Virus record (IMG/VR): IMGVR_UViG_649989948_000014
Location: 1 to 29,649 of that record
Length of the DNA: 29,649 nucleotides
Strand: one strand, 5' to 3'
Origin: a virus
Taxonomy: Duplodnaviria; Heunggongvirae; Uroviricota; Caudoviricetes
The position numbers and the translations under genes are program-made. Shown piece after piece: positions 1,934-26,757 of the stretch (position 1 is the first letter of the stretch; every line of letters begins with the position of its first letter). The notes under the pieces are model-generated. The model saw only the letters and a program-made list of their open reading frames with translations, was not told the DNA's origin and made no database searches.

Positions 1934-3233
1934 TTACACTGGTGTGTTCAGCAAATCGTTAACGGCATCAGATGCCGGGTTACCTGCAGCCAGCGGTGCC
2001 GGTGCCCCCTGCATCAGACGATCCAGCGCAGTGTCACTGCGCGCCTGTGCACTCTGTGGTGCTGCGGCCAGAATACGGCGGGCCGTTTCCACGGTCATAC
2101 CGGGGGTTTCGGCCAGCACGCATGCCTGTTCTTCGCGTCCGTGAGCCTCCTCACAGTTGAGGATCCCCATAATGCGACTGTTTTCTGCCGCAACCGCTGC
2201 GGTGATCTGCGCGTTCACGTCCGGCTGCGCAGCGCTGGCGTTCTCGCCCTCCGTCGCTTGCACCACGCCAGTAACGTCAGCCTGCGAAGCAGTGGCTGAA
2301 ACAGTTGTTGATTGAGTCTCTTTGGTCATTCGCCCTCCTGAGAGACGGGATTTACGTGCATCCAGTGCATCACGCATGACGGTGATCGCATCGGTACTGT
2401 TCACAAGTTCATCAGCCAGTCCGGCATCAATGGCCTCCTGACCGCTGTACACTGCAGCCTCGGTATCCAGCACAGCCTGCACGGACAGGCCGGTATATGC
2501 CGACACCTTCTGTGCAAACATCCGGCGGGTTGCATCCATCCGGGACTGCAGTGTTTCCCGGACATCATCCGGTAGATGGCTGTAGGGGTTGCCATCCACC
2601 TTATGGCTGCCGCTGTAAATCAGCGTGATTTCCACGCCCTGTTTCTCCAGCGCAGCACCGTAATTACTGTGAGCCATCATGACGCCGATGGAGCCTGTCC
2701 GGGCGGTCTGCGTGACCAGACGCCGGGAGGCGGCGCTGGCAAGCAGCTGACCTGCACTGCAGTTCATGTCGTTGGCCAGCGCCCATACCGGTTTTATGTC
2801 TCGCACACGGGCGATGATGTCAGCACAGTCAAATGCTCCCGCCACCATCCCGCCCGGTGTGTCCATATCCAGCAGAATGCCGTCCACAATCGGATCGCTG
2901 GCAGCCTGTTGCAGACGGGCGATAATGCCGTTGTAACCGGTCATCCCCGAATACGGCTGCAGCGCCCGCGTCCGGCTGACCAGCGTGCCGGACACCGGCA
3001 GCACGGCGATGCCGTTCATGACCTGATAACTGCGGGCCTGTCGTGGTCCGTCATCATCAACGGATAACGCCAGCGCCGCGGGTGCCTCTCCGGCAGTCAG
3101 GCTGTCGCCGGACACCGCATCCGCCAGGCGGCTGATCCCAAGCTGGCCTGCAAGCGCACAAAAGAAAACCCGCGCATAGGCGGGTTCAAGCATCAGCGGC
3201 TCATTAAAGGCCATACTGGCAATATGCGGGAGA

Positions 3234-3253
<20 letters not shown>
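1934..3253 (-). CDS. C: capsid assembly protease C (minor capsid protein C; scaffold Nu3 nested in frame in its 3' part)
   Basis: ORF 1934..3388 contains TAELRNLPHIASMAFNEPLMLEPAYARVFF...NDLLNTPV matching lambda gpC; likely GTG start at 3253 overlapping the end of B. Confidence 0.92.
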
Positions 3254-6934
<3,681 letters not shown>

Positions 6935-11547: not shown

Positions 11548-12630
11548 ATGAAAAAATTAACAGTGGCAATTTCTGCTGTAGCTGCATCAGTACTGATGGC
11601 GATGTCTGCTCAGGCAGCTGAAATTTATAATAAAGACAGTAACAAGCTGGATCTGTACGGGAAAGTTAATGCTAAGCACTACTTCTCCTCTAATGATGCA
11701 GATGATGGTGATACTACTTATGCCCGTCTTGGCTTCAAAGGTGAAACCCAAATCAACGATCAACTGACTGGTTTCGGTCAGTGGGAATATGAATTCAAAG
11801 GCAACCGCGCTGAATCTCAAGGTTCCTCCAAAGATAAAACCCGTCTTGCCTTCGCTGGCCTGAAATTCGGTGACTACGGCTCCATCGATTATGGCCGTAA
11901 CTACGGTGTAGCATACGATATTGGTGCATGGACCGACGTTCTGCCAGAATTCGGTGGCGATACCTGGACCCAAACAGATGTATTCATGACTGGTCGCACC
12001 ACAGGTGTTGCAACTTATCGTAACAATGACTTCTTTGGTCTGGTTGATGGTCTGAACTTTGCTGCTCAGTATCAGGGTAAAAATGACCGCACTGACGTAA
12101 CTGAAGCTAATGGTGATGGTTTCGGTTTCTCCACTACTTATGAGTATGAAGGATTCGGTGTAGGTGCAACCTATGCTAAATCTGACCGCACTAATAATCA
12201 GGTTATCTACGGTAACAACAGCCTGAATGCATCTGGTCAAAATGCTGAAGTATGGGCAGCTGGTCTGAAATATGATGCGAACAACATCTATCTGGCTACC
12301 ACCTATTCTGAAACCCAGAACATGACTGTTTTTGGTAATAACCATATTGCCAACAAAGCACAAAACTTCGAAGTAGTTGCACAATATCAGTTCGACTTCG
12401 GTCTGCGTCCGTCCGTTGCTTACCTGCAATCTAAAGGAAAAGACTTGGGTGCGTGGGGTGATCAGGACCTGGTTGAATATATTGATGTAGGTGCAACCTA
12501 TTACTTCAACAAAAATATGTCCACTTTTGTTGATTACAAAATCAACCTGATTGATAAGAGCGATTTCACGAAAGCATCTGGCGTTGCTACCGATGATATC
12601 GTTGCTGTAGGTATGGTTTACCAGTTCTAA
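11548..12630 (+). CDS. nmpC: outer membrane porin, NmpC/OmpD-type, apparently intact
   Basis: ORF 11488..12630; from the internal Met: [46 protein letters not shown]...GMVYQF (signal peptide, C-terminal aromatic residue); opposite strand to Q and the lysis genes, as nmpC is in DLP12. Confidence 0.9.
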
Positions 12631-14237: not shown

Positions 14238-14692
14238 TACGCCTCCTGTTTGTCGCGGAGCTGCTGGAACTCGCAGCTCTGCGGAATAGTCAGGTGGCAG
14301 CCAATATTCATCGCCCAGGCTTCAACCTTACACAGGAAGACATACATCTCTCCGGTATCAAGATCGGAGGTATGGCGTAACGACTGGATAGTGGTGATAT
14401 CACCGGTTACGACATCAACCAGGTCTTTGGTTTCATAACCGAGATATGTGTGTTTGAGAGCATCTTTTACCCAAGCTGGAGTGGCGAACGTTTTACCCTT
14501 GCTGATGAGGTATTCACTGATTTCGCTGTACCACATGTGGCTGAGTGCATTCTGGGAAAGACTGCGTCTCTCGCGCCACGGTTTAAGCACCATGCGAAAG
14601 CATTTGCCGTCCTCCAGATAAGGCTGGATCTGCCGACCGATAGCGGTGAAGTTACCGCGATGCAATTTGATACCATCTTGTGGGAGGTTCAC
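14237..14692 (-). CDS. ybcN: YbcN-like protein (DLP12 nin-region protein, reported DNA base-flipping activity)
   Basis: 151-aa [64 protein letters not shown]..., same length and position as DLP12 YbcN; likely GTG start. Confidence 0.85.
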
Positions 14693-14884
14693 GCTTCACC
14701 TCCGCAGAGATCAAACGCTGGATGCAAAATATCGCAGGTGCATTTCTGCATCTGTGAATGGAGAAGAGAGGTTGGATTGTATGTGCGCATAAACGTCCCC
14801 GTTTAGCGCAGAAGTCACCGGAGGAGTTCAAACTCCGGTGACTTAATTATGGCAAGTTGATTGTTGAAAATCAATTTAGTGGAT

Positions 14885-15667
14885 TTAGGCGCAATACAAA
14901 GGATCATTAGCAGCTCTAATACCGCCCTGAATCGCAAGCCCTGTATGGCAATTTGACATTGAGCATGATTGCCATCTGTGCAAGGGACCTCCATTAATCG
15001 AAACTTCCAGCAGATCTTTATCTCCTTTCATCCTGACCCCTTCATACAACATATCAAGACGCTCAACAATCAATCCTGTTGGAGGTTCCATTTTTAGAAC
15101 GAGGGCAAACTCTCCTGGCCCACGTCGTATTGTTATACGCGGGCCGGTACACTCCACATCCCAATTGTCTGATTTAGCTTTCCATTCATTTTCATCTATC
15201 AGTAAAGTCTCCTTACCAATAGAATTACAGAAAATTCCTGATAAAAGCATCGGTCCATGTGGTATGGGTGAAGGTTTCACAGAAAGAATGGGTTGTTCGT
15301 TGACTACAATCAAATTTTGACAGTTATGAAACGTCACTCCTGCAAATTTTACTGTTATAGGCTCATTATGAAAATCAAACATTTCATTTGCAAAACCAGC
15401 CTGTAAGCACTTGGGATTTCTGTCAGCTATTTCCACTGTCTGTGCTGAAAGTCTACCACGAGCTCTTTTTTGATTGCATTGGGAGCAAAGAAGTGTCATT
15501 CCATTCGGATCATGTACTTTGGCATCAACGAAGTCAGGTTTAAAATGCTCATAATCATAAAATCCAAATCCACAAATTACACAGCCAAAGCCGCACCTTT
15601 GCCTTATCTGACGTTTTATTGTCTCAGGTATTCTTCTTGAGAGCCCGTGTTTATTAATATTGTCCAT
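14885..15667 (-). CDS. HNH-motif (His-Me finger) nuclease-like protein with uncharacterised ~190-aa C-terminal domain
   Basis: 260-aa ORF; N-terminus CGFGCVICGFGFYDYEHFKPDFVDAKVHDPNGMTLLCSQCNQKR has two CxxC pairs bracketing conserved His and Asn; AT-rich codon usage; rest unrecognised. Confidence 0.6.
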   Translation of the reverse strand: MDNINKHGLSRRIPETIKRQIRQRCGFGCVICGFGFYDYEHFKPDFVDAKVHDPNGMTLLCSQCNQKRARGRLSAQTVEIADRNPKCLQAGFANEMFDFHNEPITVKFAGVTFHNCQNLIVVNEQPILSVKPSPIPHGPMLLSGIFCNSIGKETLLIDENEWKAKSDNWDVECTGPRITIRRGPGEFALVLKMEPPTGLIVERLDMLYEGVRMKGDKDLLEVSINGGPLHRWQSCSMSNCHTGLAIQGGIRAANDPLYCA

Positions 15668-15841
15668 ATGGTTAGTACGCTATAAGTTTGTTTCTATAAT
15701 TTTACCACAATAGATAAGTTTGTATCAGAAATCGCTATATGGAGTGAGCGGAATATTTATATTATTCATGCAATTGCTCTCCCGTACGCAGCCCGCACTT
15801 CCGTCATCGCAGAATGACGGAAGCCTTACTAACTAGCGCCT

Positions 15842-16165
15842 TTATTGAAACAGATTCTGAGGTAAATGCGGCAATACTCGACTCCACTTATCATCCTGCC
15901 ACGGCTGAAGTTTTACATGTGCCGTTTCTCGGACGAGGATTGCTCGCGCTCTGTTGAGTATCTGGGGATATTCTTGCTCGATAGAAGTGAAGCGACCAGC
16001 TTCACGATGCTCCGCAACCTGAAGAAGAGGAGTAACGTTCTGGTAGGTAATTAACATCACATTCCCTGCTCGCCATAACCAGGCGAGTGTGCAAAGTTCG
16101 TTATCAGTGAATTGTTTTGTGATTGGGGATTGTTGAACTGCTAGAACGAGAACGCCAGCATCCAT
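15842..16165 (-). CDS. hypothetical protein (107 aa), upstream of and co-oriented with the HNH-motif gene
   Basis: Uninterrupted ORF between the recombinase and the HNH gene; an overlapping plus-strand ORF (15866..16054) is shorter; no motif recognised. Confidence 0.35.
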   Translation of the reverse strand: MDAGVLVLAVQQSPITKQFTDNELCTLAWLWRAGNVMLITYQNVTPLLQVAEHREAGRFTSIEQEYPQILNRARAILVRETAHVKLQPWQDDKWSRVLPHLPQNLFQ

Positions 16166-16276
16166 TGGCAGTCCCTATAGTAAAACCATAGCTCAGGACG
16201 CTTCGTTCAGGATAGATAATTTTATTGTACTTACCTAACTTTCTTACTATAGCACGGTTGAAAAAGTGATTATTAC

Positions 16277-17803
16277 TCAAAAATAAACCTCACCATCAAC
16301 CATATATTTGAGAGTACTTATCGCCTGCTGGGCAGATATTGTTTTCATTAAAGGATAGTGTTTAAAAACAATGCCATTCATAAAATAGATATCACAGGTT
16401 TTATTATCTGTATTGATTATGATTTTTTCGAATGTTTTATAGGCAAGTGTACGACATAGCTCTCGCCCATTTTTACTGGTTAAGTCAATAGCATGAAAAT
16501 CACCAAGTGAACTCACCGCTTTACTCTTCAAAGTTTTTAATGATACAGAAGCCCTTCGTAATTCCTTATCTAATACTCTGATTTTTTCTGCTATAGCGGT
16601 AACTTCAGGCGCAACAGATAATGCAGCAATTAAATTATTAATTTTCATCTGGAGCTCAATAATTTTCAACTCTAAAGTTTCATTAGCATCTTTCTTGTTT
16701 TCAACTGGTTGGATTTTACTACAATTAAAAAGCAACTCATTAATGATATTATAATCAACCAAATCTCTCTTTATTGATGGCCTGTCACATCGATGCAGTC
16801 TTCTCATCGGACAAACATAATAGCCATGCAAACTTCCAGATACCGCATGAACAATCATGGTATTACCACAAGCCTCGCACTTCATAACTGTTCGAAGTAG
16901 ATTTATCAACATAGGATTTTTGCTACTATTGCTAATACCAAAAGGTGCCAACCGAATTTCCTGCACAGCGTAAAACAAATCATCTGATATGACTCTGGGA
17001 TAATAGCCAGCGATTTCACTTATTCCTTTACCTCTTGCACGATATGAAGGTACGCATATACCTATCAGAGCTTTATTCGCTAATAATTTTTCAATTACAG
17101 AAGGTCCCCATGCACTTTCTTTTCCTGAGAAATTCTTTACAGCATGATCATTTAAATACTTGGCTATTGCATTCAATGAGCGCCTTTCCATCCTGAGTTT
17201 AAAAATTAGCTCAATAGTTTTCACCCTGTCGGGGTCTGGAACAAAAGCCGTTCTTTTGTCATCCAATGAGAGCCATCTCGGACAAGACGCCGTCATAATC
17301 GTGCCTGACTCCAGTGCATCCTGCCGTTTTTTCTTCCATGATAATTTAACCCGACTTGACTTTATCTCGCTTTCTTCATTTGCCCTTTGTGCTATAAGTA
17401 TGGCTTTTATTAATGAATATGGCTCATTCAATGAGTCAATATTATAGACTGTATTATCGCAAAGAGTTATAACATCAATACCGTGATTCAAAATCAATTT
17501 CAGACGCTCAATCGCTTCACCGACTTTTTCTCTTGAAAGTCTGTCCAGACTTTCAACTAACAATGTAGTCCCTGGCAATATATAACCATGTTCTATAGCA
17601 TCTAAAAATTCCGAAAAAGCTCCTGATTGTGCATGCTTTCCATTGAATGCGCTTAACCCCAGATCTTCATACGTTACGGTATCAAGGTAATAATCACTAT
17701 TTACCTTTAGCCATTCAGTAATAAGCCTTCTCTGGCGGTTTAATGAATCACCAGACATCTGACCTGGTGATGAAAATCGCATATATGCTATGGCTTTTTT
17801 CAT
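16277..17803 (-). CDS. ybcK: large serine recombinase (YbcK-like)
   Basis: 508-aa ORF; N-terminal resolvase-type motif AIAYMRFSSPGQ (catalytic Ser), C-terminal Cys cluster CEACGNTMIVH...YYVCPMRRLHRC; same size and neighbourhood (next to emrE) as DLP12 ybcK. Confidence 0.85.
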   Translation of the reverse strand: MKKAIAYMRFSSPGQMSGDSLNRQRRLITEWLKVNSDYYLDTVTYEDLGLSAFNGKHAQSGAFSEFLDAIEHGYILPGTTLLVESLDRLSREKVGEAIERLKLILNHGIDVITLCDNTVYNIDSLNEPYSLIKAILIAQRANEESEIKSSRVKLSWKKKRQDALESGTIMTASCPRWLSLDDKRTAFVPDPDRVKTIELIFKLRMERRSLNAIAKYLNDHAVKNFSGKESAWGPSVIEKLLANKALIGICVPSYRARGKGISEIAGYYPRVISDDLFYAVQEIRLAPFGISNSSKNPMLINLLRTVMKCEACGNTMIVHAVSGSLHGYYVCPMRRLHRCDRPSIKRDLVDYNIINELLFNCSKIQPVENKKDANETLELKIIELQMKINNLIAALSVAPEVTAIAEKIRVLDKELRRASVSLKTLKSKAVSSLGDFHAIDLTSKNGRELCRTLAYKTFEKIIINTDNKTCDIYFMNGIVFKHYPLMKTISAQQAISTLKYMVDGEVYF

Positions 17804-18058
17804 GGTGACACCTGCTAAAGTATGCTTTTATAAACCTTAGTGGTGAGATATGATTTTTGTTTAATTTTTATTTAAAAAGACAATTAAGGTCACATTATCT
17901 TGAATATACAACAATAATCGTATTGCAATTTTCTTACACCATAATCTTGAAAGCACAAAAGAATGAATAAAAACTAAAGACATTAACAAAAAGCATAAAA
18001 CGAGGCCCATATAAATATACGAGCCTCCATATTTTAGTCGTTTAAAAACAAATTATTT

Positions 18059-18391
18059 TTAATGTGGTGTGCTTCGTGACAATAAATTAATAACCAACAC
18101 ACCGGCACAAATCAACATCATGCCTATAATGGCTGGCAGGTCCAACCGTTGGCCGAAAAATCCCCATGATAGTAAGCTAATCAGGACAATACCGACTCCT
18201 GACCAGATAGCATAAGCAATCCCTGTAGGAATATAAGCCAGCGTCTGAGCTAATAACCAGAATGATGCACAATAACAAATAATTGTACCAACAGATGGCC
18301 ATAACCGTGTAAAACCTTCTGAAAACTTCATTAAGGTTGTACCAATGACCTCTGCAAGTATTGCACCACCAAGATAAATATAAGGATTCAT
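18059..18391 (-). CDS. emrE: small multidrug resistance efflux transporter EmrE
   Basis: ORF 18059..18445; from the internal Met MNPYIYLGGAILAEVIGTTLMKFSEGFTRLWPSVGTIICYCASFWLLAQTLAYIPTGIAYAIWSGVGIVLISLLSWGFFGQRLDLPAIIGMMLICAGVLVINLLSRSTPH (110 aa, four TM) matches EmrE. Confidence 0.92.
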   Translation of the reverse strand: MNPYIYLGGAILAEVIGTTLMKFSEGFTRLWPSVGTIICYCASFWLLAQTLAYIPTGIAYAIWSGVGIVLISLLSWGFFGQRLDLPAIIGMMLICAGVLVINLLSRSTPH

Positions 18392-18458
18392 AGCATATTC
18401 TTTCCTGTTCAAACTGGAGAGAATTGTACTACAGTTTGAACTCAACTCACCTGTTTCA

Positions 18459-25912: not shown

Positions 25913-26515
25913 TCATTCAGTATCATCACGCGCGGTCTGTGCATATGTCACTACCGCACCTAATATATTAATTTTCTTTTCAACATAGATAATATTATCG
26001 TACTCATAATTGCCATACGGATAGCAAATGCGAATATTCTCATGTAGATCGGGGTCATCCACCTCAGCTCCAGAACAACTTTTTGAACTACCGGAAGTAT
26101 ACCGATACGGTGCAACATAAGACGATGTCTCTCCAGGCAAAAAATAAGTTAGTGTCGTAAGGGGTATAATCAGAAAAAATCCAGCAAATATGCACATCCC
26201 TGCATAAACCTTAAGGTATGCTGACAGACTCTTCCAGCCTCTTTGTTTTACTATCCCCTTCTTAACCCAAAACAGAGATAACAGAAAAGCTATTCCCATG
26301 CTAAACAGAATGTAATAGTGGGATATACTCTGATTAAGAAACGTGACCCTGTAGATATCTGCCCGCCACCAGAAGAAAAGGAAAATAAAGATCAGCCCTG
26401 AAACTGTCATGCAAATCAAATAAGGATACGAATCTTTTTTCATGTTTAGCGCCCATAAAATTTTTCCTGACCCGGACAAATTTACCATCCATTTTTTGCG
26501 CAGAAAATAGCTCAT
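25913..26515 (-). CDS. multi-pass inner-membrane protein of unknown function (start may be an internal Met near 26443)
   Basis: 200-aa ORF on the strand opposite to the surrounding pL operon, very AT-rich; hydrophobic segments LICMTVSGLIFIFLFFWW, YILFSMGIAFLLSLFWV, VYAGMCIFAGFFLIIPLTTLTYFL, then a ~70-aa hydrophilic C-terminus. Confidence 0.6.
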   Translation of the reverse strand: MSYFLRKKWMVNLSGSGKILWALNMKKDSYPYLICMTVSGLIFIFLFFWWRADIYRVTFLNQSISHYYILFSMGIAFLLSLFWVKKGIVKQRGWKSLSAYLKVYAGMCIFAGFFLIIPLTTLTYFLPGETSSYVAPYRYTSGSSKSCSGAEVDDPDLHENIRICYPYGNYEYDNIIYVEKKINILGAVVTYAQTARDDTE

Positions 26516-26757
26516 TACTTACTGCACAATAATACACAAAATTGCGTAAATTTTTTGCATGGATTTTAGCTCTTTCAGCCGAAATTTAAGGGGTAAATAG
26601 CATTTCCTAAAAGCAACTGCACCAACCCAACAGAATGGGCTACCGCTTACGTTGAGAGCAAAAAAGTGTATAGCAGCAATGAACAGCATCCTCGCACTGA
26701 CGAGGATTTCTTTTATCTGAACTCGCTACGGCGGGTTTTGTTTTATGGAGATGATAA

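Follow-up and report, generated by a model that had tools for sequence, protein, structure and literature searches.

Genes at the locus

The DNA under study is a stretch of 29,649 nucleotides (nt) from a virus of the Caudoviricetes (IMG/VR record IMGVR_UViG_649989948_000014), referred to here in its full length as the window, and the subject of this report is a minus-strand gene that encodes a protein of 260 amino acids (aa), WP_001348590, in which a predicted HNH nuclease domain is followed by a predicted all-beta domain. A prophage of Escherichia coli 600468 (NZ_CP025849), integrated beside ybhC, matches the window with 100% identity, and RefSeq coordinates for that locus equal the window coordinates plus 301. 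The genes around the HNH gene are arranged in the order P, ren, emrE, ylcJ, ybcK, a 107-aa open reading frame (ORF), the HNH gene, a 33-aa ORF, ybcN, ninE, ybcO, rusA, ylcG and quuD. The 33-aa ORF begins the conserved nin block that runs from ybcN to quuD, and ybcK encodes a 508-aa large serine recombinase with the Pfam domains Resolvase, Recombinase and Zn_ribbon_recom. In the DLP12 prophage of K-12, ybcL-ybcM lie between ybcK and the 33-aa ORF, in place of the 107-aa ORF and the HNH gene. An AT-rich block of 35-41% GC spans positions 14875-18445 (39.7% in the cassette that holds the HNH gene, 36.5% in ybcK and 34.7% in the emrE block) and is bordered by the nin and replication blocks, both of about 50% GC. 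These observations agree with the initial annotation of the window, which had described two minus-strand ORFs of 260 and 107 aa, 174 nt apart, in an AT-rich block beside a serine recombinase and between ybcN and ren, where K-12 DLP12 carries different genes. The positions of the features are collected in Table 1.

Table 1. Features of the HNH locus, in window coordinates.
Feature	Position	Strand	Basis and remarks
Gene of the 260-aa HNH plus all-beta-domain protein, WP_001348590	14885..15667	-	ORF list; RefSeq coding sequence in the identical strain; phrog_6544; 305 homologues; AlphaFold2 model
HNH (beta-beta-alpha-metal) domain, residues 1-88	15404..15667	-	Predicted catalytic E40-H41 and N65; H52 invariant; predicted zinc ligands C29/C32/C61/C64; C25 invariant
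All-beta domain, residues 89-260, about 17 predicted strands (~170 aa)	14888..15403	-	No recognisable relative; conserved polar N160, D170, R181
Cargo cassette, 916 bp	14875..15790	.	blastn breakpoints from comparison with six further prophage loci of E. coli; GC content
33-aa ORF (ylcH/orf33 equivalent), left flank of the slot	14689..14790	-	RefSeq annotation of the identical locus; phage 82 orf33 region
107-aa ORF, truncated Bro-N/P22AR_C antirepressor-like remnant, WP_000338662	15842..16165	-	Pfam P22_AR_C E=1.3e-15; flanks the slot
Promoter-like site in the cassette, CTGATA-18-TAAAAT with an upstream TG (extended -10), about 30 nt before the ATG	15699..15728	-	Consensus scan; weak
Perfect 10-bp hairpin CTTCCGTCAT-tctgcg-ATGACGGAAG, past the 107-aa ORF, in the conserved right flank, without a T tail	15798..15823	-	Read from the sequence; flank common to loci L003 and L085 from 15791 on
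Perfect 10-bp hairpin GTCACCGGAG...CTCCGGTGAC, 43 nt beyond the HNH stop codon, in the conserved left flank of all cargo types	14814..14842	-	Read from the sequence; flank 93-97% identical in all comparators

Predicted domains of the 260-aa protein

RefSeq labels WP_001348590 a 'hypothetical protein'; its relationships mark the ORF as a real gene. It matches phrog_6544 ('unknown function') over its full length (E=1.8e-141), and the full-length AlphaFold2 model has a mean predicted local distance difference test (pLDDT) score of 89.7 and a predicted template modelling score of 0.80. To the N-terminal side, the motif CGFGCVIC...YDYEHF...HDPNGMTLLCSQCNQKR, which the initial annotation had read as a His-Me finger signature with two CxxC pairs, was found in the ORF translation, and its residues proved to be conserved across the family. 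Conservation was scored in an alignment of 76 species-level homologues and the query (77 rows), of which 74 homologues are alignable at the N-terminal motif positions. H41, H52, C25, C29 and C32 are invariant in 74/74 alignable homologues and C61 in 77/77 aligned rows; position 40 is E in 50 homologues, H in 19 and D in 4; position 64 is C in 64 and H in 12; and at position 65, 59 homologues have H and 17 have N, the residue found in the clade of the window protein. Judged from this alignment, the catalytic and zinc-binding set of the HNH domain is complete and is under strong purifying selection throughout the family.

The model and the motif together place the domain in the HNH/His-Me finger superfamily: it has the beta-beta-alpha-metal fold, a general-base His that comes after an acidic residue or another His, a His or Asn on the helix as metal ligand, and the two CxxC pairs of the zinc subclass. 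The assignment is thus one of predicted structure and motif and not of the Pfam model, as PF01844 scored 14.5 bits (E=0.041), under its gathering cut-off of 21.4 bits. The best structural relative of the domain is the HNH domain of Cap5 (PDB 7RWK).

The C-terminal domain, when modelled alone, reached a pLDDT of 86. Three of its polar residues are conserved (N160 in 74/75 sequences, D170 in 75/75 and R181 in 64), which suggests a functional site. No internal repeat was detected by hhalign, a profile search of PDB sequences with the domain returned nothing real, and none of the modified-DNA reader domains looked for (SRA, PUA/EVE/YTH/ASCH, the McrA N-terminal domain, sulfur-binding) is recognisable in the 260-aa protein. 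An exhaustive search with the C-terminal domain alone yielded 739 clusters at 50% identity, and in nearly all of these the domain starts at about residue 88-92, behind an HNH; those exceptions that were inspected are either fragments or extended at the C terminus, for instance by TPR or SEC-C motifs. Because the domain follows an HNH at this position in almost every cluster, the two domains form an obligate unit. The use of the beta domain on other effectors was also considered and was not seen: the inspected matches that lack an HNH are fragments, and a 1222-aa match with 13 repeats looks like an artefactual tandem repeat.

Searches with the whole protein were similarly unproductive. The NCBIfam scan gave zero matches, and the scan of PADLOC-DB v2.0 (2023) gave nothing significant, its top match being PtuB (E=0.031); no significant match with required partner genes was found in that database, and there is no PtuA-like ATPase beside the gene or conserved near its homologues. 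Weak matches were obtained to PHROG and BFVD entries named 'HNH (homing) endonuclease', with Foldseek matching the HNH part alone in BFVD and at no E below 0.001. A faint resemblance to NinG was seen as well (phrog_5034, E=0.44; BFVD NinG models, E about 0.1). Searches of PDB sequences, whether started from the single sequence or from a profile of 42, returned spurious matches only (staphyloxanthin protein, HIV gp160), and family scans revealed no domain for secretion or delivery. Neither the accession nor the PHROG number was found in any paper, although the newest defence catalogues lie outside this scope and a recent characterisation is possible; in the accessible parts of the supplements of DefensePredictor and of Rousset et al., WP_001348590 does not occur. 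Altogether, the full-length protein is accounted for by no family of Pfam, NCBIfam or PADLOC, by no fold in the PDB and by no paper, and two statements of the initial annotation hold on this account, namely that the ~190 aa after the HNH motif are unrecognisable (here by PDB, Pfam, NCBIfam and PADLOC searches) and that the protein matches no named system.

The HNH gene is the sole gene of an exchangeable cassette

Comparison by blastn with six other E. coli prophage loci placed the left, nin-side junction of the cassette at 14874/14875 in 6/6 comparators, and homology on the right side resumes at 15791-15862. The HNH gene is the only gene between these breakpoints, and the cassette is carried by 80/5,426 complete E. 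coli genomes. Other prophages hold other cargo in the slot. In SA53-3 the cargo is a full-length BstA homologue (PADLOC PDLC02356, E=3.6e-121), and phage Turner shows a partial match pattern like that of SA53-3; BstA is an experimentally established abortive-infection protein of prophages (PMC8585504). In O157:H7 Anguil and strain 7_12_30A the slot holds a HEPN protein and a 133-aa protein, which may constitute a HEPN/MNT-like pair; in O104:H4 C227-11 and eco-241 it holds a 169-aa protein; in K-12 it holds ybcL-ybcM; and in O157:H7 FRIK2069 it is empty. Since otherwise near-identical prophages have the slot empty or filled with other cargo, the HNH gene is evidently dispensable for the phage.

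Several further observations were made on the alternative cargo. In the HEPN variant (positions 3215-4011 of locus L002, from O157:H7 Anguil; also in locus L086), the HEPN protein matches Pfam HEPN (E=3e-6) and PADLOC PDC-M28A (E=1.8e-7) and its gene overlaps that of the 133-aa protein, for which no function is recognised, and an integron-cassette-type protein (VCH_CASS14) is encoded near it on the other strand. The 169-aa cargo protein (WP_000990013 / WP_000990010; L003, from O104:H4 C227-11, 3188-3697, and L085 2688-3197) has no match in Pfam or PADLOC and is a second candidate in the slot.

Distribution and genomic neighbourhoods of the family

A word-index search returned 305 homologues of the 260-aa protein, and when one genome per species was searched, relatives were found in 221/185,579 species. 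Among the hosts are Proteobacteria, Cyanobacteria, Planctomycetes, Chloroflexi, Firmicutes and one Methanothrix assembly; family members share 50-60% identity across different classes of Proteobacteria and also stand alone in chromosomal contexts. Among sequenced phage records the family occurs in 1/50,697, and among plasmids in 7/72,556. In IMG/VR, 102 viral contigs encode a relative, and 78 of these loci were analysed.

Lambdoid markers were present at 36/78 IMG/VR loci. In lambdoid prophages of E. coli, Enterobacter and Klebsiella, the interval from the replication genes to the nin/Q block contains homologues with 60-79% identity, each preceded by an intergenic gap of roughly 90-170 nt; those of E. 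coli come after O/DnaC-type replication genes, and Klebsiella phage ST846-OXA48phi9.2 also carries a homologue at the lambdoid position. At 9/78 IMG/VR loci, P2 gpA and the P2 portal gene were both found within 6 kb. Between gpA and gpQ, the P2-type loci carry the homologue as their main or sole gene of any size, as does Buttiauxella; in a P2-type element of Pseudomonas luteola it lies just past the portal gene. The gpA-gpQ interval of P2-like prophages is a defence hotspot that holds old and tin (Rousset et al., PMC9122126). The gene thus occupies two independent phage defence hotspots, the lambdoid slot and P2 gpA-gpQ. In Enterobacter prophages (L095-L097, 7945-11868), a 75%-identical homologue lies directly after P. 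Behind it come two small ORFs and the genes of a 459-aa RES-domain protein and of a 476-aa protein with no assigned function, with DinI and DUF1367 beyond; this is a larger accessory island at the equivalent position.

Away from these slots the surroundings are mixed. With enterobacterial probes for phage genes, 72/76 species-genome loci do not adjoin recognisable phage genes, and the chromosomal neighbours in other phyla are varied, with many housekeeping genes such as those for LeuRS, HypF and TonB receptors. Defence genes neighbour the homologue at some loci (GmrSD twice, DrmA, a type I S subunit, a type IV enzyme, HEC-05/06 and IetA), and RelE/ParE-XRE genes are near it in Pseudomonas luteola. 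No conserved neighbour was found within five genes, the largest neighbour cluster being present at 4/74 species loci, and this lack of a conserved neighbour argues that the HNH gene works alone. The initial annotation had proposed neighbourhood conservation as a check; the lambdoid and P2 slots recur, and no neighbouring gene is conserved with the homologue (at most 4/74 loci).

At the IMG/VR loci (L099-L178), a C5 methyltransferase gene (789 aa) is near the homologue in 11/78 cases, Dam in 9/78 and a DinI-like gene in 18/78. A restriction-modification pairing with the methyltransferases was considered and rejected, because their offsets and orientations vary and the window contains no methyltransferase.

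The upstream ORF and other features of the prophage

The 107-aa ORF, labelled 'P22AR C-terminal domain-containing protein' in RefSeq, shares 83% identity with the C-terminal half (residues 100-202) of a 202-aa Bro-N plus P22AR_C protein from prophages that lack emrE-ybcK. Examined as a P22-type antirepressor, it matches P22_AR_C only and is missing Bro-N, whereas the intact 202-aa relative has both domains. In O104:H4 C227-11 and SA53-3 its counterpart contains an internal stop and is annotated as a pseudogene. It lies outside the exchanged DNA, adjoins BstA or the 169-aa protein elsewhere, and is absent beside HNH homologues in other genera. These comparisons argue that the 107-aa ORF is no part of the module; it is a remnant, whose truncation probably came with the arrival of the emrE-ylcJ-ybcK segment.

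That segment (window 16277-18445, 35-37% GC) occupies the exact site of the Bro-N half of the 202-aa gene in related prophages (compared with L002, L085 and L086), and looks like a recombinase-borne insertion that truncated the Bro-N/P22AR_C gene and imported the emrE efflux gene. The prophage as a whole is a mosaic, with lambda-like int/xis at ybhC, head, tail and red genes of lambda type, and a nin-Q-lysis region of DLP12/82 type in which an ompC-like porin gene lies at about 11548-12630 of the window. On the minus strand at 1-121, an Rfam match to the Hfq-binding small RNA isrC (141 bits, E=2.4e-34) is clipped by the window edge. Another unannotated accessory gene (25914-26516, minus strand) encodes the 200-aa hypothetical protein WP_001348592, and lies on the opposite strand between a TraR/DksA-like gene and xis-int.

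Both flanks of the slot contain a hairpin (Table 1); neither is a classical intrinsic terminator, a proper T tail being missing in both. A terminator scan of the region gave counts not above those in shuffled sequence, and no conserved regulatory DNA was found upstream or downstream of homologous cassettes. The segment of the window at 14713-14850, on the nin side of the slot, holds the 33-aa ORF and its hairpin. O157-type and eco-241 prophages have a second copy of it beyond the Bro-N/P22AR_C gene, with 87-91% identity (L002 5336-5473, L086 3509-3646 and L085 4448-4545). This repeat could be a recombination linker for module exchange.

Proposed function and rival explanations

We propose that the 260-aa protein is a self-contained, single-gene accessory nuclease (a 'moron') of temperate phages, and most likely a phage-exclusion effector that acts in defence or abortive infection; from its sequence and context, we give this reading about an even chance of being correct. 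The beta domain would be the sensor or regulator, and up to the arrival of a cue it would hold the DNase inactive or keep it away from the DNA of host and prophage. Such a cue would come from the incoming phage, as a phage protein or as an unusual DNA structure or modification, and the HNH domain would then nick or cut DNA, halting replication of the invader, possibly at the expense of the cell. A beta domain that serves as a new reader of modified DNA, as in a type IV-like enzyme, may be a sub-case of this proposal. The case for a defence candidate is strengthened by the finding that the same slot also holds BstA or the HEPN pair and that homologues sit in the gpA-gpQ hotspot, which bears out the view in the initial annotation that prophage cargo slots of this kind are used by defence genes. 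The more specific proposal, that this is the founding member, from E. coli, of a hitherto undescribed kind of one-protein immune system, in which an all-beta sensor or gatekeeper is joined to a Cap5-like HNH DNase and forms the sole payload of lambdoid and P2 defence slots, with members in many bacterial phyla and at least one archaeal assembly, is offered tentatively, as possible rather than probable.

Several findings weigh against a role in defence. The gene is co-oriented with the pR early operon and could be a lytic-cycle gene; no hidden Markov model for defence in PADLOC is matched; no self-immunity determinant (methyltransferase, antitoxin or inhibitor gene) is visible in the cassette; and the slot also carries cargo without a defence link, namely ybcL-ybcM in K-12. 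In addition, among species-representative genomes only about 6% of the 147 nearest neighbours match defence models, a figure that has no matched control, and the remainder are mostly housekeeping genes or genes of no recognised function. Promoter-like sites in the region number 15, against a shuffled expectation of 13.0 (sd 3.5).

The orientation and position of the gene, between P/ren and the ninB-type genes, match a delayed-early pR operon, and it may be asked whether the protein is instead an accessory nuclease of the lytic cycle, one that serves nin-type DNA processing or recombination (cf. NinG/Rap, RusA), host DNA degradation or counter-defence, is expressed from pR and leaves the lysogen without protection. 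The nin region is known for structure-specific nucleases, the HNH protein has its faint resemblance to NinG, and the consensus scan found no convincing promoter of its own for the gene. This explanation is nevertheless rather unlikely: most species-genome loci (72/76, by the enterobacterial probes) are away from recognisable phage genes, the family has members in cyanobacteria, planctomycetes and an archaeal assembly, homologues already have NinG or RusA beside them and so do not replace these, the slot is empty or filled with BstA or HEPN genes in otherwise near-identical prophages, and the P2 gpA-gpQ locus, where the gene is also at home, is not a lytic operon of this type. The sharp insertion boundaries and foreign GC content of a free-standing HNH gene in phages, its patchy distribution and its weak matches to 'HNH (homing) endonuclease' entries would also fit a homing endonuclease, which spreads by cleaving alleles of the slot that lack the cassette and is copied in during repair. 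However, flanks and neighbours vary between loci and a common target gene is absent, and the Pfam scan detected no NUMOD, IENR1, AP2 or helix-turn-helix module. The left junction, moreover, is shared with cargo that is not a nuclease (BstA, HEPN, ybcL-ybcM), and a junction common to unrelated cargo points to exchange through flanking homology rather than homing. Identity of 50-60% across classes of Proteobacteria and solitary chromosomal copies fit a selected cellular function better than a fast-decaying selfish gene. We regard homing as decidedly unlikely.

Stabilisation of the carrier element, rather than protection from lytic phages, would be the benefit if the protein were a solitary toxin or addiction nuclease, or a weapon against plasmids or satellites. 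HNH DNases are common as toxin domains, the gene resides on prophages and a few plasmids, and toxin-antitoxin genes lie near some loci (RelE/ParE-XRE in Pseudomonas luteola, the RES-domain protein in Enterobacter); yet a conserved immunity or antitoxin partner is absent across 74 species loci, the cassette contains one gene only, a secretion or delivery domain is absent, and an unregulated DNase without an antidote would not be expected to stay unchanged in 80 complete E. coli genomes. We accordingly see only a slim chance for this alternative. The initial annotation had left open a stand-alone or a two-component system, the second being formed with the 107-aa ORF, which is on the same strand, 174 nt away and in the same AT-rich block. 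The stand-alone part agrees with the single-gene cassette, and the two-component part has to be given up as very improbable, because the 107-aa ORF is a truncated Bro-N/P22AR_C gene that is a pseudogene in O104:H4 and SA53-3, lies outside the cassette beside BstA or the 169-aa protein elsewhere, and is absent near homologues in other genera.

If the exclusion effector proposed here is protective, a compact and widespread single-gene system of 260 aa, with a sensor domain of no known fold, would be added to the defence catalogue, in which hundreds of candidate genes of a similar general kind are already known, and the slot between ybcK/P22AR_C and ybcN in lambdoid prophages of DLP12/82 type would count as a defence hotspot. 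For annotation, the gain is that the 107-aa 'P22AR C-terminal domain protein' of such prophages can be read as a gene remnant.

Comparison with known systems

The nuclease part of the 260-aa protein is nearest to Cap5, the HNH-SAVED effector of the cyclic-oligonucleotide-based antiphage signalling system (CBASS; PDB 7RWK, 7RWM, 8FM1), with which it shares the HNH and the order of effector, then sensor. The SAVED domain of Cap5 has an alpha/beta fold, however, and the C-terminal domain of the HNH protein is predicted to be all-beta. No CD-NTase or other CBASS gene was found in the window or beside homologues, and the PADLOC models for CBASS were unmatched; membership in CBASS as a Cap5, which is defined by a SAVED domain and an associated CD-NTase, was therefore rejected. 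McrA is prophage-borne, and the type IV HNH enzymes (EcoKMcrA 6GHC, ScoMcrA 5ZMM, TagI 6GHS, VcaM4I 6YEX) resemble the window protein in having a solitary HNH, no methyltransferase and a fused, non-catalytic recognition domain. They differ in domain order, the HNH being N-terminal in the window protein, and in that their readers are known folds.

BstA shares the cassette slot (in SA53-3) and is likewise a single-gene accessory protein of prophages that acts on DNA, but is unrelated in sequence and fold type, with a KilA-N-like N-terminal domain and no HNH. It also carries a self-immunity DNA element, aba, and a comparable element was not identified for the HNH cassette. The match to the HNH proteins of Septu (PtuB) and of retrons (TIGR02646) falls short of significance and involves the HNH core alone; these proteins work with the PtuA ATPase or a retron, and the window protein has no such conserved partner. 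Phage HNH homing endonucleases and NinG/Rap are, like it, products of free-standing HNH-family genes in phage early or nin regions; their similarity to it is below threshold and restricted to the HNH core. The homing enzymes have modules of NUMOD, IENR1 or AP2 type and a conserved target site, neither of which was found for the window protein, and NinG is present alongside HNH homologues in other prophages.

DS-7 ('SVIR', WP_225403053; DefensePredictor, PMC13092281) is an experimentally validated single-protein defence of E. coli in which a Cap5-like HNH is joined to a beta-rich C-terminal domain resembling a phage baseplate protein. The window protein and DS-7 are alike in being the product of a single gene in accessory DNA of E. 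coli, with an N-terminal HNH nearest Cap5 (7RWK) and, at the C terminus, a domain rich in beta structure and unlike the classical DNA readers. DS-7 differs in its length of 368 aa and in its C-terminal DUF2634, which is similar to the phage baseplate sheath initiator, and homology between the two proteins was rejected (hhalign probability 0.4%, with 27 spurious columns aligned). Taken together, these comparisons suggest that the 260-aa protein belongs to no named system and is of the kind in which one polypeptide joins a nuclease effector to a sensor domain; DS-7 is, by analogy of architecture, its closest working counterpart.

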